Assembly (NCBI GenBank): GCA_947632135.1
Contig: CANRNZ010000002.1
Location: 1 to 48,055 of the forward strand
Reading direction: 5' to 3'
DNA length: 48,055 bases
DNA from: an uncultured Clostridia bacterium
Lineage (GTDB): Bacteria > Bacillota > Clostridia > Oscillospirales > CAG-272
The position numbers and the translations under genes are program-made. Each line of letters begins with the position of its first letter. Within the stretch, counting starts at the first letter, position 1. Below are positions 6,270 through 47,977 of this stretch, in pieces. The notes under the pieces were generated by a model, which made no database searches, was not told the origin of the DNA, and saw only the letters and a list, made by a program, of their open reading frames with translations.

Positions 6270-9200
6270 TTATATATTTACGGCGTCGTCCTCTTCGATA
6301 AGCTCACGGTTCTCATCAAGAACGGGACGTATGCAGTCCTTTATAAAGACTTCCGTCTGCCTCGGGGCAATGCCTATGAAATTTTTCACGTTTACTATTT
6401 TTTCAAGCTCCTCCTCGGTCACGCCGAAACGGCTGTCCGCGGCGATCCTCGAGAGAAGGTCGTTGTTTCCTCCGTGCAGCTTGATTCGCTTTGTCACGTC
6501 GACAGACAGCTCGCGGATAGCCTCGTGGAGCTCCTGACGGTTGCCGCCCTTTTTGACGCAGTACATCAGTATATTTTCCGTCGCGATATACGGAAGCTCT
6601 TCTCTCAGGTGCTTCTCCATGACTCCCGGATACACGCTGCCGCCTTTTACTATGTTTGTGTAAAGGGTGAGTATGCCGTCCGTCGCAAGGAACGCCTCGG
6701 GAAGGCTTATTCTCCTGTTCGCGCTGTCGTCAAGAGTTCTCTCGAGCCACTGCGTCGCGGCGGTAAAAGCGGGGTTGAGCGAATCGGTTATAACGTACCT
6801 CGCAAGGGAGGCTATCCTCTCCGCTCTCATCGGGTTCCTCTTGTACGCCATGGCGGAGGAGCCGACCTGCTTTTTCTCAAACGGCTCGTCAAATTCCTTG
6901 AGGTGAGACATAAGACGAATGTCCCCCGCGAATTTCGACGCGCTCTGCGCGATGCCCGACAGTACGGAGACGATGAAGTAGTCTATCTTTCGCGAATAAG
7001 TCTGACCGGAAACGGGAATGCACTTATCAAAGCCCATCTTCTTTGCTATCAGATTTTCAAGTCTGAACACCTTTTCCTCGTCCCCGCCGAAAAGGGAGAG
7101 AAAGCTCGCGCCGGTTCCCGTAGTACCCTTGCAGCCTGGGAACATGAGAGAGCCGAGAACGTCGTCAAGTCGCCAAAGGTCAAAGAGCAGCTCCTCAGCC
7201 CAGAGCGTCGCTCTCTTTCCAACAGTCGTCGGCTGAGCCGCCTGAAAATGGGTGTATGCGAGAGTGGGGACGTCCTTATGCGCCTCGGCAAAATCGGCGA
7301 GCGCCGAAAGGGTCGACAGGAGCTTTGACTTTATATGGAGAAGCGCTTCGCGCATTACTATCATGTCCCCGTTGTCGCCGACGTAGCAGGAGGTCGCGCC
7401 GAGATGGATTATAGGCGCGGCTTTGGGGCATACCTCGCCGAAGGTGCGGATATGAGCCATAACGTCATGGCGCAGGGATTTTTCGTACTCTCTCGCTCTG
7501 TCGTAATCTATATCGTATATATGTGCCTTCATTTCCTCTATCTGCTCATCGGAAATGTCAAGCCCGAGCTCCTTTTCGCTCTCGGCAAGAGCTATCCAAA
7601 GCTTTCTCCATGTGGAAAACTTATTGTCCGCCGAAAATATTCTCTGCATTTTTTCCCCGGCGTATCTTTCGCAAAGGGGACTCTCGTATCTGTCGGCTTT
7701 GACAAGCCCCAAAAACAGCGGGTGCGCTTTGTTCGGGCGGCTCTTGAACTCCGGGTGGAACTGGACGCCGACGTGGAAATCGTTTTCGGGTATCTCTACC
7801 GTCTCGACGATGTTTCCGTCCGGCGACGTTCCGCTTATTTTAAGACCTTTTGCGCTGAGAGCTTCTCTGAAATCGTTATTGAATTCATATCTGTGACGGT
7901 GGCGCTCATGTATCAGCTCCTTACCGTAGCATTCGTACATTTTGGTTCCGACAACGACGCGGCACGGATAAGCGCCGAGGCGAAGGGTCCCTCCCTTTTC
8001 GATGCCCGAATACTGGTCGGGGAGAAAATCTATCACCTTGTGAGAGGACATCTCGTTGAATTCACCGGAGTCGGCGTCCTCCATACCGCAGACGTGGCGC
8101 GCGAACTCTATGACCATTATCTGCATGCCGAGGCAGATCCCGAGATAGGGGACGTTGTTTTCCCTCGCGTATCTCTCGGTCGCGATTTTTCCCTCGATTC
8201 CGCGGTTGCCGAAGCCGCCCGGGACAAGGATTCCGTCGAGCGCGGAAAGCTTTTCCTTCGCGTTTTCCTCCGTCACGCTCTCGCTGTCGATCCACTCGAT
8301 ATGGACGCCGGCGCCGGTCTCATATCCCGCGTGGCGGAGCGCCTCGGCGACGGAGAGGTACGCGTCATGCAGCGCGACGTATTTTCCGACAATGCCTATC
8401 GTCACGTCCTCCTTCGGGCTCTTTATCCTTTCGAGCATCTCGCGCCAGCCGTCAAGGTCGGGCTCTCTGTTCTCAAGTCCGAGCTTGCGGCAGACCGCGG
8501 CGGAAAGGCCGTTTTTCTCGAGCATTATCGGCGCCTCGTAAAGGGTGTCGAGGGTGAGGTTTTCTATAACGGAGTCCTCTGTTACGTTGCAGAAGAGAGA
8601 TATCTTTTTGAATATGCTCTTTTCGAGTGGTCTGTCGCAGCGAAGGACTATGACGTCGGGCTTTATTCCCATTCCCTGAAGCTCCTTGACGGAGTGCTGG
8701 GTCGGCTTTGTCTTATGCTCGTCCGAGCCGCTGAGGAAAGGAACGAGGGTGACGTGTATGTACATCGCGTTCGAGGGGCCGACCTCAAGGCCGACCTGAC
8801 GGATTGCCTCGAGAAACGGCTGGCTCTCGATGTCACCCGTCGTGCCGCCTATCTCCGTTATGACGATATCAGCGCTCGTCTTTTTTCCGACGCTGTATAT
8901 GAAGTCCTTTATCTCGTTTGTTATATGCGGTATCACCTGAACCGTATGTCCGAGATACTCGCCGCGCCGCTCCTTGTTCAGCACGTTCCAGTATACTTTT
9001 CCCGTAGTCAGATTTGAAAATTTGTTAAGGTCCTCGTCGATAAATCTCTCATAGTGTCCAAGGTCAAGGTCAGTCTCCGCGCCGTCCTCCGTGACGTATA
9101 CCTCTCCGTGCTGGTAAGGACTCATCGTTCCGGGGTCGACGTTGATATAAGGGTCGAGCTTTTGAGAGGCGACCTTATATCCTCTCGCTTTAAGAAGTCT

Positions 9201-9275
9201 GCCGAGGGACGCCGCGGTTATGCCCTTTCCGAGCCCCGATACGACCCCTCCCGTAACAAAAATATACTTTGTCAA
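6270..9275 (-). CDS. pyrG/purB: Fusion protein: CTP synthase (N-terminal ~527 aa) joined directly to ADSL-type adenylosuccinate lyase (C-terminal ~474 aa)
   Basis: One open frame (track ORF 6270..9284). The likely start is TTG 9275, 6 nt after AAGAGGTG, giving the canonical PyrG N-terminus [18 protein letters not shown]. PyrG GATase motifs GICLGMQ and VQFHPEF are present. The junction reads [10 protein letters not shown]|[16 protein letters not shown] at nt ~7692-7697. PurB motifs HDVMAH and [15 protein letters not shown] are present. Confidence 0.85.
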
Positions 9276-9352
9276 TTTCCACACCTCTTTTGTTTGCAGA
9301 CGCCTGCAAAATTATTTACCTTTTATACTCAGGCTTCAGCATTGCTTTACGC

Positions 9353-9940
9353 TCAGTTTTCGTAAGCGCGGATTATGCTCCGCGCCACCTCCGCTTTTTT
9401 CACGCACCTGTCCATCGCCTGTTTTTCCACGTATCGGTGAGCCTCGGGCTCGCTCATTTTAAGTCTGTCCATAAGGAGCCACTTCGCGCGGTTCACGAGA
9501 CGTATCTCCTCCATTTTGGCTCTGAGGCTGACAGCCTCCCTTTCGTACGCCTCAAATCTGTGTCTTACGGCGCACAGCATTCTCACCGCCATATACAGCT
9601 CGTTTTTTGACAGAGGGCGCTTTAAGGTTACAATGCCGTACTTTTCCACCTTGGACGCCACCTGCTCGAATATATCCGCCTTTACGATAAGTATGACTCC
9701 TATCTCCCGTCTCGCGGCAATGCCGACGGCAAGCTCTATTCCGAAGTCGTCGGGAAGCGGAGTGTTTATCACCACTATGTCGACGTCGGACATTTCGGTC
9801 ATACGTCGACGCGCCTCGCCGCTCTCCGACGCCGAAACGACGCGGGAAAACAAATCCTTGGGGAGCGCGTCGCTCAGCATATTGCAAAGCTGCTCCGTTT
9901 TCGACACGGCAAGCACACTGTACGGACGCCGTTCAACCAC
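9353..9940 (-). CDS. ANTAR-domain RNA-binding antiterminator with a degenerate (pseudo-)receiver domain
   Basis: The C-terminus carries ANTAR (RAKWLLMDRLKMSEPEAHRYVEKQAMDRCVKKAEVARSII). The N-terminus is REC-like but reads SVLAVSKTEQ and DIVVINTPLPDD at the acidic-pocket and phospho-acceptor positions. The likely start is GTG 9940, 4 nt after AAGGGGGAAGG. The track ORF begins at TTG 9973, which has no RBS. Confidence 0.8.
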   Translation of the reverse strand: MVERRPYSVLAVSKTEQLCNMLSDALPKDLFSRVVSASESGEARRRMTEMSDVDIVVINTPLPDDFGIELAVGIAARREIGVILIVKADIFEQVASKVEKYGIVTLKRPLSKNELYMAVRMLCAVRHRFEAYEREAVSLRAKMEEIRLVNRAKWLLMDRLKMSEPEAHRYVEKQAMDRCVKKAEVARSIIRAYEN

Positions 9941-10055: not shown

Positions 10056-11264
10056 TTAAATCTCAAACGCCTCAAGGTAAGCCTTCGGCAGGCAATCCCT
10101 TACAAATCGGCTGTTCTTTGCCGCCTCGAGCGCCTCGCTCAGCGAGGAGGGCAGCTTTTCGAGGGAGCCCGTCACAAGAGAGTCCGCCGTATAGAGGTTC
10201 TCGTTTACGGGTGCGGAGGGCTTTTCCTTGTTTTTTATCCCCTCGAGTCCCGCGCGGATAATAAGCGCGTACGCAATGTACGGGTTGCACATCGGGTCGG
10301 GGCTTCTCAGCTCTATGCGCCGCCTGCCTTCCGACGCGGCGGGTATTCTTATGAGCTGCGAGCGGTTCTCGGGCGACCACGAAATGTAAAGCGGCGCCTT
10401 TTTCTCCCCGAGTCTCTTGTATGAATCCTCGGTGGGATTGAGAAACAGGGTCATATCCTTTATTCTGTTCATGACTCCCGCCATAAAGCTGTCGCTCGGG
10501 TCCGCCCCGCCGCGGCTTTCCACGGAAATATTTATGTGCATTCCGCTTCCCGCCTCGTTTTCGAGAGGCTTCGGCGAAAAGTCTGCTGTCAGTCCGTTTT
10601 CGACGGCGACGCTCTTTACGGCCCACTTAAAGGCGGAGGTGTTGTCGGCGGCGCTCAGCGCGTCGCTGTATCTGAAATCTATTTCGTTCTGCCCCGGGCC
10701 GACCTCATGGTGAGACGCCTCGGTGACAATACCCATTTCGTTAAGGGTGAGGCATATTTCGCGCCGTATGTTCTCGCCTCTGTCGTCGGGGGCTATATCC
10801 ATATATCCCGCTCTGTCGAGAGGCTCCCTCTCGGCGCCCTCTGTCTGAGAGTCCCCCTTGAAAAGGTAAAACTCCATTTCGGGCCCCACCGAGACTGTTA
10901 TACCCTCAAGCGCCGCGTCGGCTACCGCCTTTTTAAGTATATATCTCGAATCCTTTTCAAAGTGCGAGCCGTCCGGGCGGTACACGTCGCAGTACATTTT
11001 GACGACTCTGCCGTGGGACGGTCTCCAAGGGAGCACAGACAGAGTCGACGGGTCCGGGCGGAGGAACAAATCGCTTTGCTTCTCGTCGCCGAAGCCCGAC
11101 ACCGCGGACGCGTCAAAGGAGATGCCCTCCTCCATCGCGCGCCTCAGCTCGGACGGCGGAACGGACACGTTCTTCTGTTTTCCCCATATATCAAAATATG
11201 CGAGTCGTATAAATTTAACGTCCTCTTCCTCAACGTACGAAAGAACATCATCAAAAGTATACAT
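10056..11264 (-). CDS. glnA: Glutamine synthetase family protein, short GS-I-like (about 402 aa)
   Basis: GS beta-grasp N-terminus (VKFIRLAYFDIWGKQK). Catalytic-domain motifs GSGMHINIS, NPTEDSYKRLG and ENRSQLIRIP are present. The likely start is ATG 11264, preceded by GGGGG. The track start is 11285. Confidence 0.8.
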   Translation of the reverse strand: MYTFDDVLSYVEEEDVKFIRLAYFDIWGKQKNVSVPPSELRRAMEEGISFDASAVSGFGDEKQSDLFLRPDPSTLSVLPWRPSHGRVVKMYCDVYRPDGSHFEKDSRYILKKAVADAALEGITVSVGPEMEFYLFKGDSQTEGAEREPLDRAGYMDIAPDDRGENIRREICLTLNEMGIVTEASHHEVGPGQNEIDFRYSDALSAADNTSAFKWAVKSVAVENGLTADFSPKPLENEAGSGMHINISVESRGGADPSDSFMAGVMNRIKDMTLFLNPTEDSYKRLGEKKAPLYISWSPENRSQLIRIPAASEGRRRIELRSPDPMCNPYIAYALIIRAGLEGIKNKEKPSAPVNENLYTADSLVTGSLEKLPSSLSEALEAAKNSRFVRDCLPKAYLEAFEI

Positions 11265-11300
11265 GTCAGCCCCCAAATTCCTCATATTTAAAACAAAATA

Positions 11301-11370
11301 TTAAAGCAAAATTTTAAAGCAAAATTCGAAAAAGTTTCGGAACGGTTTCGGAAAATTTCGGATTGGTTTC
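11301..11370. repeat. Short tandem repeats in the glnA leader: TTAAAGCAAAAT x2 and GTTTCGG(A) x3-4
   Basis: Read directly in the 11301-11370 stretch. Confidence 0.85.
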
Positions 11371-11371
11371 A

Positions 11372-11406
11372 AACGGGAAAAACGCCGCGGCGGTAAAATG
11401 CCGCGG
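11372..11406 (-). terminator. Leader terminator/attenuator T2 of the glnA-like gene
   Basis: Minus strand reads CCGCGGC-auuuuacc-GCCGCGG followed by CGUUUUUCCCGUUU. An upstream GCGGAcgcUCCGC hairpin overlaps the 5' arm and is a possible antiterminator. Confidence 0.5.
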
Positions 11407-11473
11407 AGCGTCCGCTTTATTTTCCCCTCCCTAATAAGCCTTAATAATTAAAAGCTTAAAACATTAAAACCTT

Positions 11474-11527
11474 AAAAAATTATAAAAGCGCTCACCCGAA
11501 GGGGCAACCTCCCCCGTAGATGAACGC
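11474..11527 (-). terminator. Leader structure/terminator T1 of the glnA-like gene
   Basis: Minus strand reads GCGUUCA-ucuac-GGGG-gagguug-CCCC-uucggg-UGAGCGC followed by UUUUAUAAUUUUUU. It starts about 20 nt after the predicted TSS. Confidence 0.45.
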
Positions 11528-11549
11528 CATTGCTCGCTTCAGCGGCTAT

Positions 11550-11578
11550 AGTATACCAATTTTTACGCTTTTTGTCAA
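11550..11578 (-). promoter_or_regulatory. Near-consensus sigma-70-type promoter for the glnA-like gene
   Basis: Minus strand reads TTGACA (11578-11573), a 17-nt spacer, then TATACT (11555-11550). The predicted TSS is near 11543, giving a 5' leader of about 280 nt. Confidence 0.6.
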
Positions 11579-11865
11579 GTTACTTTTATAAGATTTATAA
11601 GTTTATAATGTTATTGAAATAAATTGCGAAACGGAATAACTCGGAAATAAAATTCAAAAAATCTTACCCGATTTTTTCCGAGCTATCGTAACTCATCCAA
11701 TAAATTTACAAGCTGAATTTACAGGCGGTTTATCCGCATCCCTTTTACCGTGATTTTGCATCCCGCTTTGTCATACAACTCGCACAAAAGTTTGCGGCGC
11801 AATATTTCGTTTGGTGGTGAAATCTCCGAAAAGACGCCGAGTTCCCTTTTTTTCGCCAAGAAGTA

Positions 11866-11894
11866 TTGACAAAGTTTTTTGCGGGTGATAAAAT
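11866..11894 (+). promoter_or_regulatory. Near-consensus sigma-70-type promoter for glnN-asnB-gltBD
   Basis: TTGACA (11866-11871), a 17-nt spacer, then TAAAAT (11889-11894). The predicted TSS is near 11901, giving a 5' leader of about 283 nt. Confidence 0.6.
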
Positions 11895-11907
11895 AGGCAC
11901 AACGGCA

Positions 11908-11948
11908 ACGGCGTCGCAGCAGTATCTGCGGCGCCGTTTTTTTGTTTT
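11908..11948 (+). terminator. Leader terminator/attenuator T1 of glnN
   Basis: ACGGCGTCGCAG-cagtat-CTGCGGCGCCGT forms a 12-bp stem with one G-U pair, followed by TTTTTTTGTTTT. It begins only about 8 nt after the predicted TSS. Confidence 0.7.
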
Positions 11949-12056
11949 AAACTTTTAAAGCTTATTATTTTTATGTTTCAAAGCTTTTTAGAGCTTTGAA
12001 AATTCGTTTTGCAAATTTTTTAAAAAATCAAAAAGTTTTAGATTTCGTATCCGAAT

Positions 12057-12111
12057 CGGCAAAGACGTCGTCGGCTCAAAGTCCGAACACCTTTGCCGTT
12101 TTTTATTTTTT
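12057..12111 (+). terminator. Leader terminator/attenuator T2 of glnN
   Basis: CGGCAAAG...CTTTGCCG forms an 8-bp stem around a 26-nt structured insert, followed by TTTTTTATTTTTT. It lies 73 nt before the glnN ATG. Confidence 0.5.
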
Positions 12112-12183
12112 AAACAGTATTCATTTTAAGTTTTTCTGTTAAATTAAATTATTCAATTTATTTTTTAAGGAGCAGCTTCCAAG

Positions 12184-14271
12184 ATGAAAAAAGTTACTGA
12201 AGAATTCGGTTCGATGGTCTTTGACGAAAGGACCATGAAGGAAAGGCTTCCCAAGGAGACCTTCAAGCGTCTTGAAAAAACGATGAAAAGCGGAAAGAGC
12301 CTTGACGTAAACGCCGCGACAATCGTTGCAAACGCGATGAAGGACTGGGCTATCGAAAAGGGCGCGACCCACTACACTCACTGGTTCCAGCCGATGACGG
12401 GAATTACCGCCGAAAAGCACGACAGCTTTATCGCCCCCACGGCCGACGGCAAGGTTATAATGGAGTTTTCCGGAAAAGAGCTTGTGCGCGGTGAGCCCGA
12501 CGCATCCTCGTTCCCCTCGGGAGGACTTCGCGCGACGTTTGAGGCGAGAGGCTACACCGCGTGGGATCCGACCTCCTTTGCGTTTATAAAGGACGGCGTC
12601 CTCTGCATACCGACGGCATTTTGCTCCTACGGCGGTCAGGCGCTTGACAAGAAAACGCCGCTGCTGCGCAGTATGGAGGCGATAAACCGTCAGGCAATGA
12701 GAATTCTTCGCCTTTTCGGCAACACGGACGCCACATGCGTAAAGACGACTGTCGGCCCCGAGCAGGAGTACTTTCTCATCGACGAGAAAATGTACGAAAA
12801 GCGCCGCGACCTCATATACACCGGAAGAACTCTTTTCGGCTCGAAGGCGCCGAAGGGTCAGGAGCTTGACGACCACTATTTCGGCTCGATAAAAACAAGA
12901 GTCCAGGAGTTTATGAAGGACCTCAACGACGAGCTCTGGCAGCTCGGGATACTCGCAAAGACGGAGCACAACGAGGTCGCTCCCGCTCAGCACGAGCTTG
13001 CGCCCATTTTTACAACGACAAACATCGCCGCCGACCACAACCAGCTTACAATGGAAATGATGCAGAAGGTCGCAAAGCGCCACGGAATGGTATGCCTGCT
13101 TTCGGAAAAGCCCTTCGCGGGTGTGAACGGCAGCGGCAAGCACAACAACTGGTCTATTTCTACCGACACGGGCGTGAACCTTCTTGAGCCCGGCGACACG
13201 CCGTTTGAAAACGCGCAGTTTCTTCTCTTCCTTTGCTCAGTCATCAAGGCGGTCGACGAATATCAGGATCTTATCAGAATATCCGCCGCCTCCGCCGGAA
13301 ACGACCACAGGCTCGGAGCCGCAGAGGCGCCGCCGGCAGTCGTTTCTATGTTCCTCGGAGACGAGCTCACAGAGATTCTTGAGGCGATAGAAAAAGAGGA
13401 GGCCTATGGTGCGCGCGAGAAGGAGCTTCTGAGGGTCGGCGTACACGTTCTGCCGAAATTCCCGAAGGACGCGACGGACCGCAACAGAACATCTCCCTTT
13501 GCCTTTACGGGCAACAAATTCGAGTTCAGAATGCTCGGTTCCTCGGCGTCGGTATCGGGCCCCAACACGATGCTGAACACCGCCGTCGCGGAGGAGCTTC
13601 GCCTCTTTGCCGACGAGCTTGAGGTCGCCGAGGACTTCGAAAAGACTCTCCACGATATAATAAGAAAGACGATAAAAGAGCACAAGAGGATTATATTCAA
13701 CGGAAACGGGTACGACGAATCGTGGCTGAAGGAGGCAAAAAAGCGCGGTCTTCTCAACCTCAAGACGACTCCCGACGCTCTCCCTTATCTCATAAGCAAA
13801 AAGAATATAGAGCTGTTCAAGACTCACAAGGTGTTCACCGAGGAGGAGCTTTACTCAAGATACGAAATCCTCATGGAAAACTATTCGAAGGTCCTCGGAA
13901 TCGAGGCTCTGACGATGGTAGACATGACACGCAAGGATATTCTGCCCTCCGCAATGCGCTACGGACGCGAGCTTTGCGACGCCGCGGCGGCAAAGAAGTC
14001 CCTCGGCGCGGACACGACATACGAGAGCGAGACGCTGAAAACCGTATCCTCGCTCACGACAGGCATTTTCTCAATGGTAGGTCAGCTTGAGCGCGATATC
14101 GAGGAGGCAAAGACGATGGGCGACGTCACAAAAGAGGCAAACTTCTGCAAAGACACCCTCTTCTCCCACATGGCTTGCCTCAGAGCGAGCGTCGACGAGC
14201 TTGAGGAGTGCATGCCGTCCGATACGTGGCCTTATCCCTCTTACGGCGATATTCTGTTCAGCGTGAAGTAA
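12184..14271 (+). CDS. glnN: Glutamine synthetase type III
   Basis: 695 aa, a length typical of GSIII. N-terminus [20 protein letters not shown]...[12 protein letters not shown]; motifs [15 protein letters not shown] and [15 protein letters not shown] lies upstream of the ATG. Confidence 0.9.
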
Positions 14272-14301
14272 AGCAAGGAAAAAATTCTCACGGAGGTTTC
14301 T

Positions 14302-15882
14302 ATGTGTTCCGTTATGGGTTATTTCGGGCAGAACCCGGATACCGAAAAATTTGAAAAAGGCTTTAACATGACAAAATCCCGAGGCCCCGACGACAGCAGG
14401 ACCCTCAAGGTGGAAAACGGTATTCTCGCCTTTCACAGGCTGTCGATTATGGGGCTTGACTCCTCGGGAATGCAGCCGTTTTCAAGAGACGGCGACTCTG
14501 TCGTCTGCAACGGGGAAATATACGGGTTCAGAAAAATAAAGAAGGCTCTCGAGGATGAGGGGTACGTTTTTAAAAGCGGCTCGGACTGCGAAATCCTTCT
14601 TCCCATGTACAGAAAATACGGCTGCGGCATGTTTAAAATGCTCGACGCCGAGTTCGCTCTTATAATCTACGACGGAAAAGAGAAAACCTTTGTCGCGGCG
14701 CGCGACCCAATCGGTATTCGCCCGCTGTACTACGGAGTCGACCGGGACGGCGGAACTGTTTTTGCGAGCGAGGCAAAAAACCTCGTCGGGCTGTGCGACG
14801 TTATAAAGCCCTTTCCGCCGGGGCACTACTGGAAAGACGGAAAATTTGTCTCATACAGAGATATGAGCCGCGTCGACTCCTTTCACTCGGAGGGGCTTGA
14901 CGTAATATGCGGGAACATAAGAGAAAAGCTGACGCGGGGAATCGAAAAAAGGCTTGACGCCGACGCGCCGCTCGGGTTCCTTCTCAGCGGCGGGCTTGAT
15001 TCCTCGCTCGTCTGCTCCGTCTCCTCCCGCATTCTGAAGAAAAAAATAAGGACGTTTTCGATTGGAATGGACACCGACGCCATCGACCTCAAATATGCGA
15101 GAGAGGTGGCGGAGTACATAGGCTCCGAGCACACGGAAATAATAATGACGAGGGACGATGTGATACAATGCCTTTGCGAGGTTGTCGCCGCTCTCGGAAC
15201 ATATGACATAACGACGATACGCGCGTCTGTCGGAATGTATCTTCTCTGCCGCGAGATACACAGAACCACCGACATAAGGGTAATTATGACAGGCGAGATA
15301 TCCGACGAGCTGTTCGGATACAAATACACCGACTTCGCGCCGTCCGCCGAGGAATTCCAAAAGGAGTCCGAAAAGAGGGTGCGCGAGCTGCATATGTACG
15401 ACGTGCTGAGGGCCGACAGATGCATTTCCGTAAACTCGATGGAGGCGAGAGTCCCGTTCGGGGATCTCGATTTCGCAGAGTACGTGATGTCAATAGAGCC
15501 GTCCGTTAAAATGAACGTCTACGGAAAGGGAAAATATCTTCTGCGCCGCGCATTTTCGGGGGACTATCTGCCGGAGAGCATTCTCATGCGCGAAAAAGCG
15601 GCCTTTTCCGACGCCGTCGGGCACTCGATGGTGGACTGCCTGAAGGAGTACGCCGAAGAGCTTTATACCGATGAGGAATTTAAGGAAAAGGCGTCTCACT
15701 ACAAAACGGCGGCGCCGTTTACGAAAGAATCTCTTCTCTACCGCGAGCTTTTTGAAAAATACTATCCGAATCAGGCGGGAATGATTGCAGGGTTCTGGAT
15801 GCCGAACAAGAGCTGGAAAGGGTGCGACGTCGACGACCCGTCGGCAAGAGTCCTTTCGAATTACGGAGCGAGCGGAATTTGA
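14302..15882 (+). CDS. asnB: Asparagine synthetase (glutamine-hydrolysing)
   Basis: 526 aa. Has the Ntn-amidotransferase Cys2 (MCSVMGY) and the PP-loop SGGLDSS. GGAGG RBS lies upstream; the gene starts 30 nt after glnN. Confidence 0.9.
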   Translation: MCSVMGYFGQNPDTEKFEKGFNMTKSRGPDDSRTLKVENGILAFHRLSIMGLDSSGMQPFSRDGDSVVCNGEIYGFRKIKKALEDEGYVFKSGSDCEILLPMYRKYGCGMFKMLDAEFALIIYDGKEKTFVAARDPIGIRPLYYGVDRDGGTVFASEAKNLVGLCDVIKPFPPGHYWKDGKFVSYRDMSRVDSFHSEGLDVICGNIREKLTRGIEKRLDADAPLGFLLSGGLDSSLVCSVSSRILKKKIRTFSIGMDTDAIDLKYAREVAEYIGSEHTEIIMTRDDVIQCLCEVVAALGTYDITTIRASVGMYLLCREIHRTTDIRVIMTGEISDELFGYKYTDFAPSAEEFQKESEKRVRELHMYDVLRADRCISVNSMEARVPFGDLDFAEYVMSIEPSVKMNVYGKGKYLLRRAFSGDYLPESILMREKAAFSDAVGHSMVDCLKEYAEELYTDEEFKEKASHYKTAAPFTKESLLYRELFEKYYPNQAGMIAGFWMPNKSWKGCDVDDPSARVLSNYGASGI

Positions 15883-15893
15883 GGGAATACCGC

Positions 15894-15960
15894 ATATGAG
15901 TCATATGAATGCATATGAAGTAATATGAAAACATATGAAGGAATATGAAGAAATATGAAT
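15894..15960. repeat. Seven exactly 10-bp-phased copies of ATATGA(A/G) between asnB and gltB
   Basis: ATATGA starts at 15894, 15904, 15914, 15924, 15934, 15944 and 15954. Confidence 0.95.
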
Positions 15961-16098
15961 AAAACGGAAAATTACAATAATTGTCATAATTGTCGGGAAT
16001 ACGATAATTCCGAAAATATAAACAGTATCGAAAAAGAAAATCCGCAAACGGGGAGCGGGGGATACCGCTTTGAGCCCGAAAGGAGGAGCGCTGCGAGC

Positions 16099-19000
16099 AT
16101 GATAAACGCCGCGCACGACTCCTGCGGAATAGGCGCCGTTGTAAACATTGACGGCAGAGCCGACAGGCGCACCGTCGACGACGCTCTTAAAATAGTCGAA
16201 AAGTTAGAGCACCGCGCGGGACGGGACGCCGACGGGAAAACCGGCGACGGCGTCGGCATTATGACACAGATACCGCACTCGTTTTTCCGCCGCGAGCTAA
16301 AGGACGCCCCTCTCTCTCTGACGAGGGGCGACTATGCCGTCGGAATGTTCTTTCTGCCGTCTGACACGGACACGAGGAAAAAGGAAAGACGGCTGTTTGA
16401 GACAATCGCCGAAAAAGAGGGGCTGCCCGTTGCGATGTGGCGGAAAGTGCCGATAAACCCCGACATTCTCGGAAATAAGGCAGTTGCCTGTATGCCGTAT
16501 ATAGCACAGTGCTTTATAGCGCGGCCCGAGAAATATAAGGCAGGGGTCGAATTTGACCGCAGGCTGTACGTCCTGCGCCGTCTTTTTGAGCAGAGCACGA
16601 AGGGGAGCTATGTCGTTTCCCTCTCGTCAAGAACAATAGTGTACAAGGGAATGTTTCTCGTCGGGCAGTTGAGGCGCTTTTACCGCGACCTTGAGTCGCC
16701 TTACTTCGAGAGCGCGATGGCGCTCGTCCATTCCCGTTTTTCGACGAATACGACGCCGAGCTGGGAGAGGGCGCACCCGAACAGGTTCATTCTTCACAAC
16801 GGCGAGATAAACACTATACGCGGAAATGTCGACCGTATGGCGGCAAGAGAGGAAACCCTCTCATCGCCGTATCTTGAGGACGATATGGAAAAAATTCTTC
16901 CGGTTATAGGCATCAAGGGCTCCGACTCTGCAATGCTCGACAACACGGTTGAATTTTTGTATATGAACGGAATGGAGCTTCCTCTGGCGCTTATGATAAC
17001 GATGCCCGAGCCGTGGAAGCACCGCGAATACATAAGCCGCGAAAAAAAGGACTTTTATCACTACTACGCGACGATGATGGAGCCGTGGGACGGCCCCGCG
17101 GCAGTTATCTTTTCGGACGGCGACGTCGTCGGAGCGACGCTCGACAGAAACGGGCTCAGACCTTGCAGATGGTACCTCACTGACGACGGCAGGGTAATTA
17201 TTTCCTCCGAGGTCGGAGTGCTCGACATTGAAAATAAGCACATAATAAAAAAGTCGAGGCTTGAGCCGGGGAAAATGATTCTCTGCGACATGAAGAACAA
17301 CGAATTTCTGGACGACGCGGAGTGCAAGGAGAAATACATAAACCGCTCGCCGTTCGGCGAATGGCTGAGCCGATATCTCACAAGGCTGAGAGAGCTGCCG
17401 ATACCGAACAAAAAGCCCGAGGACAGCGGCTCGCGCGAGGAGAGGCGAAAGCTGTACCACGCCTTCGGATACACCTATGAGGATGTGAGAGAGGTAATTC
17501 TCCCAATGGCAAAAAACGCGGGCGAGAAAATCTCCTCCATGGGTATAGACATTCCTCCCGCTTTTCTATCCAAAACACACCAGCCGCTGTTTTACTATTT
17601 CAAGCAGCTTTTCGCTCAGGTGACAAATCCGCCTATCGACTCGCTTCGCGAAAAGGCGGTGACCGATACGACTGTATACGTCGGCTCGGACGGGAATCTG
17701 CTGTGCGAAAAGGGTGAAAACTGCCGCGTTCTCGAAATCGAAAATCCTATTCTGACAGAGGTCGACCTTATTAAAATATGCGCGCTCGACAAGCCCGGGC
17801 TGCATACCAAAAAGGTCTCCCTTTTATACTATAAGAACACCTCTCTCGAAAAGGCGATGGAGGATTTGTTTATAAGGTGCGACAAGGCTTTCAGAAACGG
17901 AGCGAACATAATAATCCTCTCTGACCGCGGAGTTGACGAAAACCACCTCGCGATCCCCTCGCTGCTTGCGGTATCGGGCGTCGAGCAGCATCTTATAAGG
18001 ACGAAAAAACGCACCGCGGTATCTATAATCCTCGAAAGCGGGGAACCGCGGGACGTTCACCAGTTTGCCGCACTCCTCGGTTACGGCGCAAGAGCGGTAA
18101 ACCCGTATCTTGCCCACGAGTGCATAGCGGAGCTTATAAAGGACGGCATACTTGACAAGGACCTCCACACCGCAATAGAGGACTACAACAAGGCGGCAAT
18201 CGACGGTATAGTCAAGGTCGCATCGAAAATGGGAATCTCGACAATCCAGTCCTACCAGTCCGCGCAGATATTCGAGGCCGTCGGCATATCGAAGGAGGTC
18301 ATCGACCGCTACTTCACAAATACGCCGTTTGCCGCTCCCGGAGTTGGTCTTACGGAAATCGGTGAGGACGTCGAATGGCGGCACAACAAGGCGTTTTACT
18401 CCGCCGACGCGGCATGCAGCGTTCTGCCGAGCGTCGGTTATCACAAGCTGCGCCGAGGGGAGGAAAAAGAAGAGCATCTCTACTCTCCCGAGACTATAAC
18501 CGCTCTCAGAGAGGCGGCACAGAACGGAGACTACGCGCGCTTTAAGGAATACAGCGCGATGCTGACGCGCGACGGCGCGCGCTTCGGTATAAGAAGTCTG
18601 CTCGATTTCAACACCGAAGGGTGTACTCCCGTTCCGATCGAGGAGGTGGAGAGCGCCGCCGAAATCGTAAAGCGCTTCAAGACAGGCGCGATGTCATACG
18701 GCTCGATATCAAAGGAGGCGCACGAGTGCCTCGCGCTCGCGATGAACACTCTCGGCGGCAAGAGCAACTCGGGCGAGGGCGGCGAGTCCCCCGAAAGGCT
18801 CGGGACAAAAAAGAACAGCGCGATAAAACAGGTGGCGTCGGGGCGCTTCGGCGTGACGTCGGAATATCTTGTCAGCGCGAGGGAAATACAGATAAAAATG
18901 GCGCAGGGCGCAAAGCCCGGCGAAGGCGGGCACCTTCCCGGGCGGAAGGTTTACCCTTGGATTGCGAGGACCCGTCTTTCAACTCCCGGCGTCGCTCTGA

Positions 19001-20607
19001 TTTCCCCTCCGCCGCACCACGACATATACTCGATTGAAGATTTGGCGGAGCTTATATACGACCTCAAAAACGCAAATCCCGCCGCTGACATTTCCGTAAA
19101 GCTCGTCTCCGAGGCGGGAGTCGGGACGATTGCGTGCGGGGTCGCAAAGTCCGGCGCGTCCGTTGTTCTTATCTCGGGATACGAGGGCGGAACGGGAGCC
19201 GCTCCGACAAGCTCAATACACAACGCAGGTCTTCCTCTTGAGGTCGGTCTGTCCGAGGCGCACCGCGCTCTTTCGGAAAACGGACTGAGGGAAAAAGTGC
19301 GAATAGAGGCTGACGGAAAGCTCATGTGCGGAAGAGACGTCGCAATCGCGGCCCTTATGGGAGCCGAGGAGTTCGGCTTTGCGACCGCTCCCCTTGTAAC
19401 TCTCGGCTGTACAATGATGAGAGTGTGCAACCTTGACACTTGCCCCATGGGAATTGCGACTCAGGACGAGCGTCTGAGAGCACGCTTCTGTGGAAAGCCC
19501 GAGTACGTTATGAACTTTATGCTGTTTATCGCCGAGGAGCTGAGAGAGATCATGGCCTCGCTCGGAATCAGGCGCGTCGACGATATGGTGGGAAGGCGCG
19601 ACCTTATAAAGGTAAAGGAGTCCGAATCCTTATCGAGCCTTCCGCACGGCAAAATCAACGCCGATTTGTCGGAGATAATCGGAAAGCCCGACTCGAAGCC
19701 CGCGCGCTTTTCAAAGGACGCATCTTACGACTTCGAGCTTGAAAAGACGGCGGACGTCAGAATACTCATACCCGAGTTTGAGCCGTACGTGAAAAGCGGA
19801 AAGCCGCATAGCGTCGACTGCGCCGTGACGAGCACGGACCGCGCGTTCGCGACACACTTCGGCTCCGTTATAACGAAAAAATTCAAAAACACCTTAAAGG
19901 ACGACACCTACGTCGTAAACTGCCGCGGCGGCGCAGGGCAGTCCTTCGGAGCGTTTATACCGAAGGGGCTCAGCGTAAACCTTGAGGGGGACGCAAACGA
20001 CTACTTCGGAAAGGGACTGTCGGGAGGAAAGCTCTCGCTCAGAGCTCCGCGCGACTCAAGATTTAAGCCCTCCGAGAACGTCATTGTCGGAAACGCCGTG
20101 CTGTACGGCGCGACGTCAGGCGAAGCGTACATCTCGGGCATTGCCGGCGAGCGCTTCTGCGTCAGAAACTCGGGAGCAGTCGCCGTCGTCGAGGGAGTCG
20201 GAGAAAACGCTCTCGAATATATGACGGGCGGGAAGGTTCTTATCCTCGGCGACGTCGGAAACAACTTTGCCGCAGGAATGAGCGGCGGCACGGCTTACGT
20301 ATACGACGAGCGCCACACGCTTTACAAAAAGATAAACAAGTCCGGGCTCGATATGCTTGAGGTGAGCGAAAAAGAGGACGCCGACGCAATAGAGAGTATG
20401 CTGCGGCGTCACATTGAGGCGACCGATTCGGCGCTTGCGAAAAGTATTTTAAGCGACTTTGGCTCAAAGCTTGCATTTTTCAAAAAGATTCTGCCGCATG
20501 ACTACGGTGTGATAACGGGACTTATAAGGCAGAATATGTCAATGGGAATGAACCGTTACGACGCCGAGCTCGCGGCGTTTGATACAATGCGCAAAGGAGG
20601 CGTCTGA
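16099..20607 (+). CDS. gltB: Glutamate synthase (NADPH) large subunit
   Basis: Ntn Cys in HDSCGIGAV, FMN domain ISGYEGGTGAAP, 3Fe-4S Cys motif VCNLDTCPMGIATQ, and a C-terminal GXGXG beta-helix domain. ATG 16099 is preceded by AGGAGG at 11 nt. The track start 15955 lies inside a tandem repeat and has no RBS. Confidence 0.9.
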   Translation: MINAAHDSCGIGAVVNIDGRADRRTVDDALKIVEKLEHRAGRDADGKTGDGVGIMTQIPHSFFRRELKDAPLSLTRGDYAVGMFFLPSDTDTRKKERRLFETIAEKEGLPVAMWRKVPINPDILGNKAVACMPYIAQCFIARPEKYKAGVEFDRRLYVLRRLFEQSTKGSYVVSLSSRTIVYKGMFLVGQLRRFYRDLESPYFESAMALVHSRFSTNTTPSWERAHPNRFILHNGEINTIRGNVDRMAAREETLSSPYLEDDMEKILPVIGIKGSDSAMLDNTVEFLYMNGMELPLALMITMPEPWKHREYISREKKDFYHYYATMMEPWDGPAAVIFSDGDVVGATLDRNGLRPCRWYLTDDGRVIISSEVGVLDIENKHIIKKSRLEPGKMILCDMKNNEFLDDAECKEKYINRSPFGEWLSRYLTRLRELPIPNKKPEDSGSREERRKLYHAFGYTYEDVREVILPMAKNAGEKISSMGIDIPPAFLSKTHQPLFYYFKQLFAQVTNPPIDSLREKAVTDTTVYVGSDGNLLCEKGENCRVLEIENPILTEVDLIKICALDKPGLHTKKVSLLYYKNTSLEKAMEDLFIRCDKAFRNGANIIILSDRGVDENHLAIPSLLAVSGVEQHLIRTKKRTAVSIILESGEPRDVHQFAALLGYGARAVNPYLAHECIAELIKDGILDKDLHTAIEDYNKAAIDGIVKVASKMGISTIQSYQSAQIFEAVGISKEVIDRYFTNTPFAAPGVGLTEIGEDVEWRHNKAFYSADAACSVLPSVGYHKLRRGEEKEEHLYSPETITALREAAQNGDYARFKEYSAMLTRDGARFGIRSLLDFNTEGCTPVPIEEVESAAEIVKRFKTGAMSYGSISKEAHECLALAMNTLGGKSNSGEGGESPERLGTKKNSAIKQVASGRFGVTSEYLVSAREIQIKMAQGAKPGEGGHLPGRKVYPWIARTRLSTPGVALISPPPHHDIYSIEDLAELIYDLKNANPAADISVKLVSEAGVGTIACGVAKSGASVVLISGYEGGTGAAPTSSIHNAGLPLEVGLSEAHRALSENGLREKVRIEADGKLMCGRDVAIAALMGAEEFGFATAPLVTLGCTMMRVCNLDTCPMGIATQDERLRARFCGKPEYVMNFMLFIAEELREIMASLGIRRVDDMVGRRDLIKVKESESLSSLPHGKINADLSEIIGKPDSKPARFSKDASYDFELEKTADVRILIPEFEPYVKSGKPHSVDCAVTSTDRAFATHFGSVITKKFKNTLKDDTYVVNCRGGAGQSFGAFIPKGLSVNLEGDANDYFGKGLSGGKLSLRAPRDSRFKPSENVIVGNAVLYGATSGEAYISGIAGERFCVRNSGAVAVVEGVGENALEYMTGGKVLILGDVGNNFAAGMSGGTAYVYDERHTLYKKINKSGLDMLEVSEKEDADAIESMLRRHIEATDSALAKSILSDFGSKLAFFKKILPHDYGVITGLIRQNMSMGMNRYDAELAAFDTMRKGGV

Positions 20608-20608
20608 T

Positions 20609-22075
20609 ATGGGAAAAAGCAGCGGATTTCTCGAATATGAAAGAGTCGAGCGTCCATCTGTCCCCGAGTCCGAACGGATTTTGAATTTCAACGAGTTTCA
20701 CGTTGATACGTCAATAGACGAAAGGCGGCGTCAGGGAGCGAGATGTATGAACTGCGGAGTTCCGTTCTGTCAGTCGGCAATCGAGCTCGGCGGTATGGTG
20801 ACCGGCTGCCCTCTGCACAATCTTATACCCGAATGGAATGACGAGATATACATGGGAAACGAATGCGGCGCCTTAGAGCGTCTGCTCTCGACCTCCTCTT
20901 TTCCCGAGTTTACCGGCAGAGTCTGCCCCGCGCTTTGCGAGAAAGCGTGTGTCGCGGGACTGAACGGCGAGCCCGTTACAGTACGGGAGAACGAATTATA
21001 CATTATCGAGACTGCGTTCAAAAACGGAATGATGACGCCGAGAGCGCCGAAAAGACGGACAGGAAGAAGGGTCGCCGTGGTCGGCAGCGGGCCGAGCGGT
21101 CTTGCCGCCGCGGACAGGCTGAACAGATACGGACACACTGTCACGGTGTTTGAAAAGAGCGACCGCGCCGGCGGGCTTCTCATGTACGGGATACCTAATA
21201 TGAAGCTTGAAAAGCAAATAGTTGACAGGAGAGTTTCCCTTATGGAGAGCGAAGGGGTGCGCTTCGAGCTTAATTCTGACGTTGGGCGCGACGTTTCGGC
21301 AGACGGGCTTATGTCCGATTTTGACGCCGTAGTCCTCTGCTGCGGTTCAAAGGTCCCGCGCTCGCTTGACGCGGCTTCCTGCGATGTCGGCGGGGTGTAC
21401 TACGCGGTCGACTTTCTGACCTCGGTGACAAAGGCTCTTGACGGCGGGGTTTTGTCGGACAGAGAGCACATTTCGGCAAAGGACAAGAACGTCGTTATAG
21501 TCGGCGGAGGAGACACGGGAAACGACTGCGTTGCGACATGCATTCGTCTCGGCTGCCGCTCGGTAGTTCAGCTTGAGATGACAAAGGAGCCGCCGAAAGA
21601 CAGGAGCGAAAAGGATACATGGCCTCGCTGGCCGCGCGTTTTAAAGACCGACTACGGTCAGGAGGAAGCGTCGTACCTCAGCGGACACGACCCGAGAATT
21701 TACGAGACGACCGTAAAAGAGATAAAAGTAAACGACGACGGCGCGCTCTCAAAGGTCGTCACCGTAAACGTCTCCTTCGAAAGCGGAAAGCTCACCGAAA
21801 AGGCGGGCAGCGAGAAGGTCCTCGACGCGGACATGATGATAATTGCCGCAGGCTTTGTGGGCTGTGAGAGCTATGTCACGGACGCTTTCGGCGTCGAGAG
21901 AAGCTCCCGCGGGAGAGCCGTTACCGAAGATGGAAAATATCAGACGGCAAAGGAGGGAGTCTTTGCCGCGGGGGATATGCGCCGCGGGCAGTCCCTTGTC
22001 GTCTGGGCAATATCCGAGGGCAGACACTGCGCCGACGAGGTTAACGAGTACCTTTTGTCTCACCGTTTTGAGTAG
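20609..22075 (+). CDS. gltD: Glutamate synthase (NADPH) small subunit
   Basis: Fe-S Cys clusters CMNCGVPFC and [12 protein letters not shown], and Rossmann motif [17 protein letters not shown] 20609 follows AAAGGAGG and lies 2 nt after the gltB stop. Confidence 0.9.
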
Positions 22076-22084
22076 GCACTTACG

Positions 22085-22138
22085 GATATTGCAGATAGTG
22101 ACAGATATTGACGGATATTGACAGATATTGACAGATAA
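22085..22138. repeat. 10-bp tandem repeat ATATTGACAG, about 5.5 copies, in the gltD 3' region before the terminator
   Basis: Read directly: gatattgcag atagtgacag atattgacgg atattgacag atattgacag ataaa. Three units (the 3rd to 5th) contain an exact TTGAC(A/G). Confidence 0.95.
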
Positions 22139-22140
22139 AT

Positions 22141-22184
22141 ACGGCGCGGCGCCGAAATAGGCGCCGCGCCGTATAATTTTTTTT
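22141..22184 (+). terminator. Intrinsic terminator after gltD
   Basis: ACGGCGCGGCGCC-gaaata-GGCGCCGCGCCGT forms a 13-bp stem, followed by ATAATTTTTTTT. Confidence 0.75.
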
Positions 22185-22207
22185 GCGAATGTAATGCAAT
22201 TTAAAAT

Positions 22208-47888: not shown

Positions 47889-47933
47889 TGAAAGGGGAGG
47901 TGGCGCGAAGCGCCGGTGGGGTTTATAAAGTTT
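47889..47933. repeat. Dispersed double-hairpin element, family D, copy 2
   Basis: GAGCCTCCCCTGAAAGGGGAGGTGGCGCGAAGCGCCGGTGGGGTT is near-identical to 24036-24079 and in the same orientation. Confidence 0.9.
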
Positions 47934-47977
47934 TAAAGATAAAAATTTCGGGGGCTTTTCAGCCCCCGAGTTTTTAT

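Follow-up and report, generated by a model that had tools for sequence, protein, structure and literature searches.

A glnN leader of an uncultured Clostridia bacterium with two tandem single-hairpin attenuators, probably under ANTAR-type antitermination control

The window analysed here is a 48,055-nt stretch (contig CANRNZ010000002.1) from the metagenome-assembled genome (MAG) of an uncultured Clostridia bacterium (2.05 Mb in 187 contigs). It contains two divergent operons separated by an AT-rich gap of 900 bp, and the subject of this work is the leaders within that gap, above all the leader of the glnN operon. On the forward strand, a type III glutamine synthetase (GS) gene, glnN, is followed by asnB, gltB and gltD; on the reverse strand, a short GS type I-like gene is followed by a gene for an ANTAR RNA-binding regulator (Table 1). 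This gene order, a GS gene and then a co-directional ANTAR gene adjoining the genes of glutamate synthase (GOGAT), is of the NitR type. Two consensus sigma-70 promoters in the gap point outward, with 290 bp between them, and region 11200-12300 contains 7 terminator-like sites as compared with 1.7 +/- 1.4 in shuffled sequence. A DNA box of the GlnR/TnrA type (TGTNAN7TNACA) was not found in the 900-bp intergenic region. The window glnN is at most 74% identical to that of its relatives, whose names are of the Oscillospirales, Christensenellales and Lachnospiraceae type.

Table 1. Features of the two divergent operons and their leaders, with the sites of one dispersed repeat (window numbering unless a contig is named)
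Feature	Position	Strand	Details
Sigma-70-type promoter of glnN-asnB-gltBD	11866-11894	+	TTGACA-17-TAAAAT, 11/12 matches, TG extension
Putative antiterminator hairpin 1	11903-11916	+	CGGC[AACGGC]GUCG; 4 bp; A1, A2, G4; begins at ~+3
Intrinsic terminator 1	11907-11945	+	13-bp stem 11907-11938, 9 G-C pairs; U7 11939-11945
AT-rich palindromic hairpin, spacer between the two attenuators	11976-12001	+	11 bp
Putative antiterminator hairpin 2	12057-12070	+	CGGC[AAAGAC]GUCG; 4 bp; hexaloop A1, A2, G4
Intrinsic terminator 2	12057-12111	+	CGGCAAAG (12057-12064) pairs with CUUUGCCG (12091-12098); tail 12099-12111
glnN, GS type III	12184-14271	+	Pfam and open reading frame (ORF); ATG at 12184
asnB	14302-15882	+	Pfam and ORF
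gltB	15955-20607	+	Pfam and ORF
gltD	20579-22075	+	Pfam and ORF
Whole regulated operon (predicted), glnN-asnB-gltB-gltD	12184-22075	+	
Sigma-70 promoter of the GS-I-like/ANTAR operon	11578-11550	-	TTGACA-17-TATACT, TG-extended; predicted start ~11543
Putative antiterminator hairpin, GS-like/ANTAR leader	11535-11522	-	GAGC[AAUGGC]GUUC; 4 bp; A1, A2, G4
Intrinsic terminator overlapping the GS-like-leader hairpin	11528-11474	-	GGCGUUCAUCU...GGGUGAGCGCU then UUUAUAAUUUUUU
Short GS type I-like gene, first in regulator operon	10056-11285	-	409 aa; Pfam Gln-synt_N and Gln-synt_C
ANTAR RNA-binding regulator gene, second in regulator operon	9353-9940	-	PF03861, 63.6 bits
AAAAUUUU-type repeat sites	window 47931-47970; C6 5004-5044 and 7001-7044; C59 8556-8599; C137 1863-1905		

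From the position of its promoter, the transcription start site (TSS) of the glnN operon is predicted at ~11900-11902, and a start at ~11901 would give a leader of 283 nt. The promoter, the two terminators and the hairpin between them, all claimed in an initial annotation made from the sequence alone, were found where that annotation had placed them. Both terminators are of the intrinsic (Rho-independent) kind, with a G+C-rich stem-loop and a U-run directly after it. The second lies exactly as proposed, but its tail is U6-A-U6 and not the U13 reported, and its stem consists of an 8-bp base plus an inner stem. The leader as a whole is strongly structured (folding z-score -5.56; 0 of 200 shuffled sequences fold equally well). 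The middle hairpin exists, but it is neither conserved nor repeated: together with the spacers it has no repeats elsewhere in the genome and no conservation in related leaders, and a role for it is without support in these comparisons.

The recognition rule established for three ANTAR proteins is a hexanucleotide loop whose first base is A and whose fourth is G (A1/G4; PMC3369936). The initial annotation had found no such loop by eye; in fact, one such hairpin, with a 4-bp stem, overlaps each of the two terminators, and a third lies in the divergent GS-like/ANTAR leader. All three carry an A1/G4 hexaloop on a short stem (AACGGC at 11907-11912, AAAGAC at 12061-12066 and AAUGGC at 11531-11526 on the reverse strand). 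The 5′ strand of terminator 1 is formed by the loop and the 3′ strand of hairpin 1, and terminator 2 shares its 5′ strand with hairpin 2. Each hairpin and the terminator that it overlaps exclude each other, as indicated by the shared columns, by the covariation of both helices and by the folding energies. For glnN unit 1 the free fold has -24.6 kcal/mol as compared with -7.2 kcal/mol when the hairpin is enforced; the corresponding values are -17.9 and -8.2 kcal/mol for unit 2, and -28.9 and -16.1 kcal/mol for the unit of the GS-like/ANTAR leader. Across 77 such units from related loci, the hairpin alone averages -3.4 kcal/mol and the terminator state -22.5 kcal/mol. Since the hairpin is weak and the terminator state far stronger, termination would be the default and a stabilising factor would be needed for read-through. 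A pair of hexaloops with TATG stems at 15904-15947 was also considered and rejected: it is weak and belongs to a 10-bp repeat array, not to an attenuator.

Comparison of the gap with the glnN loci of relatives by blastn returned short matches only. Several of these shared one stretch of 16-19 nt (11901-11919 in the window), which in the relatives lies shortly before glnN, and they pointed to a conserved ACGGCAAnGGCGTCG core. The relatives' leaders share the core (A)CGGCAAnGGCGTCG, which directly follows a consensus promoter, is fused to a terminator, and folds as a hairpin of at least 4 bp with a C-G closing pair and the loop AAnGGC. For counting, a strict unit was defined as C-AAnGnn-G on a stem of at least 4 bp, with at least 7 of 8 terminator pairs from loop G4 and a U-rich tail. 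The 110 glnN loci (847 kb, both strands) contained 92 strict units, as compared with 1-7 (mean 2.5) in 10 dinucleotide shuffles. When any other base was required at one loop position, a scan that admits three times as many sequences as the strict one, 3 matches were obtained for A2, 7 for A1 and 7 for G4, indicating that the requirement for A2 is as strict as that for A1 and G4.

In the comparison of orthologous leaders, a check proposed in the initial annotation, both alternative helices covary in the 77-unit alignment. The hairpin pairs are of mixed types (CG24/GC24/AU23, AU42/GC25/CG10 and GU30/AU28/GC19), and pairing, at 86% in register, drops to 31-51% when the hairpin partner is shifted by 1-3 columns. 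In the terminator helix, 94.5% of cells are paired, and 8 of the 10 pairs show double changes. We built a covariance model, R1, from the unit alignment, with unit 1 in the training set and unit 2 outside it. Its only matches in the window with E < 0.01 are the three hairpin-terminator copies, namely unit 1 (11899-11943, 40.4 bits, the training-set copy), unit 2 (12053-12108, 25.3 bits, E = 0.0012 in the window, not a training copy) and the unit in the GS-like/ANTAR leader (11539-11479 on the reverse strand, 27.2 bits). Some matches of R1 in whole genomes are ordinary terminators; a strong one in G037, a genome without an ANTAR gene, turned out to be an ordinary terminator at a gene end, with a pseudo-stem of 2 bp, and was rejected.

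In the 52 units with consensus -35 and -10 boxes, the stem begins 5-15 nt after the -10 box, a position among the RNA's first few nucleotides that leaves no room for an upstream hairpin (P1) of the kind that known ANTAR targets have in tandem with a second one (P2). An A1/G4 hexaloop forms the terminator apical loop in none of the 77 units, and a scan of both strands of the window found no canonical paired A..G.. hexaloop hairpins in either leader. On these three grounds the element is not a two-tandem-hexaloop (P1+P2) target, and, as the initial annotation had noted, the space does not admit two upstream hairpins; the layout is non-canonical. Two units stand in tandem in about a quarter of the unit-bearing glnN leaders, the window included. 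Cultured carriers of the unit include Claveliimonas monacensis DSM 108991 (L031), which has tandem units ahead of glnN and a divergent ANTAR gene, Herbinix hemicellulosilytica T3/55 and Pseudoflavonifractor phocaeensis. A hairpin of the GAGC/GAAC type is found 5′ of the divergent GS-like gene in many related loci as well.

The strict unit was found only in genomes with an ANTAR gene. PF03861 was searched in the genomes of 109 related glnN loci, and a strict unit at the glnN locus was present in 48 of the 82 ANTAR-positive genomes and in 0 of the 27 ANTAR-negative ones; the genome studied here encodes its own PF03861 protein, at 9353-9940 on the reverse strand. In relatives, units also precede gdhA, a GltB-like amidotransferase gene, an amtB-glnB fusion, asnB and the GS-like/ANTAR operon, always after a consensus promoter or in leader position, and judged by these genes the regulon is one of nitrogen assimilation. 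Within the genome studied here, units are confined to the two divergent operons of the window: gdhA (contig C182) and a second glnN paralogue (contig C29) have none, and amtB-glnB and the GltB-like amidotransferase gene were not found in this incomplete assembly. The second paralogue (C29:8588-10672, reverse strand) is 61% identical to the window glnN and has a short leader. Six of seven same-genus genomes have only this second glnN type and lack ANTAR, so the glnN / GS-like-ANTAR module is patchy within the genus, by gain or loss. At one related locus (G028:C5:64497-64658, L028-type), a second ANTAR gene lies directly upstream of glnN and not beside a GS-like gene; the glnN of the L028-type locus, with 71% identity, is the closest to the window glnN among relatives.

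The closest solved relatives of the encoded ANTAR protein are Rv1626 and EutV. Its ANTAR domain is intact: of three EutV residues with described roles in RNA contact (PMC8934654), Lys149 and Glu160 are kept and the G4-stacking Tyr164 is replaced by His, a position that is Phe in Rv1626. The N-terminal domain scores 25.7 bits with Response_reg, below the cut-off of 30.2 bits, and has SVLAVSKTEQ in place of the acidic pair and DIVVINTP, with Asn for Asp, at the phosphorylation site. Missing both the acidic pocket and the phospho-acceptor Asp, it is a pseudo-receiver of the AmiR-like type, and no kinase gene is present in the window. The neighbouring GS-like protein falls below the TIGR00653 (GlnA equivalog) cut-off (369 as compared with 429 bits). 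It keeps the metal- and substrate-binding catalytic motifs (alignment to 8s59, E = 5e-109) and therefore cannot be called a dead enzyme; a role as a sensor is a hypothesis only.

We consider it likely that the glnN leader consists of two tandem protein-dependent attenuators with antitermination of the NitR/ANTAR type, one hairpin serving each terminator. The initial annotation had likewise favoured conditional antitermination at two serial terminators with the adjacent ANTAR protein as candidate, and this is the best reading of mutually exclusive hexaloop hairpins in a unit confined to ANTAR genomes. The observations that carry it are two alternative folds that covary, a specific loop sequence, a position just after the promoter and co-occurrence with ANTAR genes. 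By default, transcription from the consensus promoter would stop at terminator 1 (~+45), and transcripts escaping it would stop at terminator 2 (~+210). The 5′ strand of each terminator could alternatively form the weak 4-bp hairpin, closed by C-G, with the hexaloop AAnGnC. The NitR-like ANTAR protein with its pseudo-receiver, encoded 2 kb away, is presumably the hairpin binder; it would bind and stabilise the hairpin as it emerges from RNA polymerase, and the bound hairpin would withhold the 5′ strand of the terminator and so allow read-through into glnN. The single hairpin would thus take the role of P2 directly, in unit 1 at the extreme 5′ end of the RNA. By analogy with NitR of Clostridium saccharobutylicum, a limiting nitrogen supply may induce read-through, and the pseudo-receiver may be controlled through a partner protein. 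Since the unit is also found in the leader of the GS-like/ANTAR operon, we propose that the regulator would control its own synthesis.

Several points weigh against this interpretation. The proposal is drawn from sequence, predicted folding and comparison with relatives. Because pairing was a criterion in choosing the 77 units, part of the paired fractions follows from the selection itself; more can be learned from the pair types and from the fifth and sixth pairs of the hairpin, which were not selected for (65% and 52% paired), than from the pairing totals. The Fisher p of 8e-9 for the association with ANTAR genes overstates the independence of the genomes, which are related. In 34 of the 82 ANTAR-positive genomes the sampled glnN locus has no strict unit, and a looser candidate with a 3-bp stem (L041) occurs in a 1.7-Mb MAG with no detected ANTAR gene. 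The whole-genome search with R1 was lossy (130 first-look candidates scored per genome) and missed the window's own copies, and it was therefore left unused for calls of absence. Finally, the dual-hexaloop layout is absent, and the sufficiency of a single hairpin is unproven, since EutV antitermination requires both hairpins and their spacing (PMC8934654).

Among other explanations, there is a slim chance that the hairpin is bound by a different factor, either the GS-like protein or another RNA-binding protein, and that the ANTAR gene merely travels along. Co-occurrence cannot separate the two candidates, because 17 of the 20 ANTAR genes in relatives directly follow the GS-I-like gene (matches ~1.1 kb apart). 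The properties of the proteins and of the RNA do discriminate: no RNA-binding domain was detected in the GS-like protein by Pfam and family-profile scans, the RNA-contact residues are kept in the ANTAR domain, and the loop obeys the A1/G4 rule of ANTAR proteins.

It is less probable still that terminator 1 is a separate RNA of ~45 nt or a 5′ stabilising hairpin, with glnN transcribed from elsewhere, an option that the initial annotation had held in reserve as a tiny RNA or 5′ stabiliser. The off state would indeed yield a terminated ~45-nt RNA from a consensus promoter. However, a scan for other promoters with at least 9/12 matches gave none downstream of terminator 1, in many genomes nothing but this unit separates the promoter from glnN as an element, and units recur as second or internal elements without a promoter. 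A U-tract immediately after the stem argues against a simple stabiliser, and the recurrence of the unit, often in tandem, before nitrogen-assimilation genes in dozens of genomes led us to set this option aside.

We regard as very improbable that the elements act without a protein, as constitutive partial terminators, as insulators between divergent promoters or as ligand or temperature sensors. Strong hairpins with U-runs do terminate unaided, and Rfam provides no match, so that homology alone leaves room for an undescribed class. The search for Rfam covariance models proposed in the initial annotation brought nothing in the leaders to the gathering score: with Rfam 15, neither a permissive scan of 10900-12500 nor a scan of the entire window at the gathering score gave a riboswitch (the glutamine riboswitch included), T-box or leader family, the only passing match being one tRNA. 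The best sub-threshold matches (at most 27.6 bits, with cut-offs of 39.8-113 bits) were all to unrelated small-RNA families. Nevertheless, a ligand pocket would not fit into a hairpin of 14 nt, and termination needs no strict A1, A2, G4 or C-G closing pair, yet all of these are conserved. The exclusive co-occurrence with ANTAR genes and the restriction of the units to nitrogen-assimilation genes also speak against protein-free elements. The weakest explanation, a canonical dual-hexaloop target whose second hairpin was overlooked, could appeal to the covariance model of Ramesh et al., which matched 45-60 nt before Firmicutes GS/ANTAR genes and may include the single-hairpin class, but it hardly survives the absence of paired hexaloops from both leaders, the 0 of 77 apical loops and a first hairpin that begins within a few nucleotides of the predicted TSS.

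Antitermination by one hairpin per terminator can be placed among several known systems. In C. saccharobutylicum, the regulator NitR acts by antitermination to induce GS/GOGAT genes (Stutz 2007, summarised in PMC6316151). As far as that summary describes the glnA-nitR-gltAB cluster of strain NCP262, the two loci share, within the Clostridia, a GS gene followed by an ANTAR gene near GOGAT genes, and GS/GOGAT control by antitermination, known there and predicted here. Compared by description and gene order, they differ in that the target operon here runs divergently, with a type III GS and asnB as its first genes, and in that the GS neighbour of the regulator here is a short GS-I-like paralogue.

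The hairpins resemble the targets of EutV (eutP/G/S/A), NasR (nasF) and AmiR (amiE) in the A1/G4 hexaloop and short stem (PMC3369931, PMC3369936), in the mutual exclusion with an intrinsic terminator, in the nearby ANTAR gene and in the presence of several attenuators per locus. Unlike those targets, which comprise P1 and P2, there is one hairpin per terminator here; the loop and 3′ strand of the hairpin (in unit 2, the 5′ strand and loop) make up the 5′ strand of the terminator, unit 1 occupies the extreme 5′ end of the transcript, and A2, G5, C6 and the C-G closing pair are also conserved. Multiple and sometimes tandem attenuators are described for the predicted Desulfotomaculum/Firmicutes regulons of Ramesh et al. 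2012 (Fig. 9, Table S2) and for GnfK/GnfR of Geobacter sulfurreducens (PMC2995071), where, as here, they precede nitrogen genes (glutamine synthetase, glutamate synthase, PII and amtB there). Those attenuators, in contrast to the present ones, were found with and described as dual-hairpin motifs. In addition, GnfR is a response regulator that can be phosphorylated and has its cognate kinase (PMC2995071), in contrast to the pseudo-receiver described above. Here the regulator resembles AmiR of Pseudomonas aeruginosa, an ANTAR protein with a non-phosphorylated pseudo-receiver; since such a receiver is not phosphorylated, the activity of an AmiR-like regulator must be set by a partner protein. Unlike in AmiR/AmiC, there is no AmiC-like binding protein here, and the conserved neighbour, the GS-like protein, is a hypothetical partner.

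Several observations in the surrounding DNA stand apart from the attenuators. In the divergent leader, a second terminator-like hairpin, CCGCGGC...GCCGCGG, then CGUUUUU, lies at 11406-11385 (reverse strand) with GCGGACGCUCCGC just before it; it has no A1/G4 hexaloop hairpin and no match to R1. Between it and the start codon of the GS-like gene (11287-11370, read on the reverse strand) are phased repeats, four copies of UCCGAAA and then about three of GCUUUAAAAUUUU. The asnB-gltB gap (15892-15959) contains about seven copies of (G)CATATGAAG with 10-bp phasing that reach the gltB start, without a terminator; its sequence suggests an array for protein binding on one face, or a repeat prone to slippage. 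Immediately 3′ of gltD, at 22085-22190, there are five 10-bp copies of GATATTGACA, followed by a strong G+C-rich terminator, ACGGCGCGGCGCC...GGCGCCGCGCCGU, and a U-run. A terminator-like repeat, AAAAUUUU[AAAGAU]AAAAUUUU plus CGGGGGCU...AGCCCCCGAG and a U-run, occurs at no fewer than five sites in the genome. Finally, one ORF of 1004 aa (6270-9284, reverse strand) combines CTP synthase and adenylosuccinate lyase domains according to Pfam.

That nitrogen genes can be controlled by ANTAR antitermination is not new; for Firmicutes the prediction dates back to 2012, and the accepted target is a pair of hexaloop hairpins. Ramesh et al. 2012 placed predicted ANTAR targets 5′ of GS/ANTAR and glutamate synthase genes in several Firmicutes (PMC3369931, Table S2), with up to 13 elements per genome, described as dual hairpins (PMC3369931), and a 2025 review gives dual hairpins only for ANTAR proteins. 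The EutV-RNA crystal structure of Walshe et al. 2022 led to a new definition of the minimal ANTAR motif, which became one hexaloop; for EutV antitermination, the two hairpins and the spacing between them were still found necessary, and the authors called for bioinformatics on single-hexaloop targets (PMC8934654). The present units agree with that work, in which one ANTAR dimer meets one hexaloop and the existence of targets with a single hexaloop is predicted. Walshe et al. expected single hexaloops where the polymerase imposes no time constraint, as in EutX sequestration (PMC8934654); here they are found in co-transcriptional attenuators. The leader is thus a one-hairpin variant of a known ANTAR nitrogen switch and not a new mechanism, and the occurrence of this layout in dozens of Clostridia genomes offers a concrete, testable case for the question raised by that structure.

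More tentatively, the single 5′-terminal AAnGGC hexaloop might represent a distinct class of ANTAR target without P1 which, together with a pseudo-receiver ANTAR protein and an always-adjacent short GS-like paralogue, would be the main nitrogen control in many gut and rumen Clostridia. The GS-like protein would then act as a metabolite sensor gating the ANTAR protein by protein contact, as AmiC does AmiR; we see this as a possibility, though not the expected outcome. For annotation, the layout translates into a simple rule that identifies these attenuators, for which Rfam has no family: a consensus promoter is followed by C-AAnGGC-G, with at least 4 bp in the stem, and next by an overlapping terminator. 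The single-hairpin class marks a compact nitrogen regulon in abundant and little-studied anaerobes of the gut and rumen.

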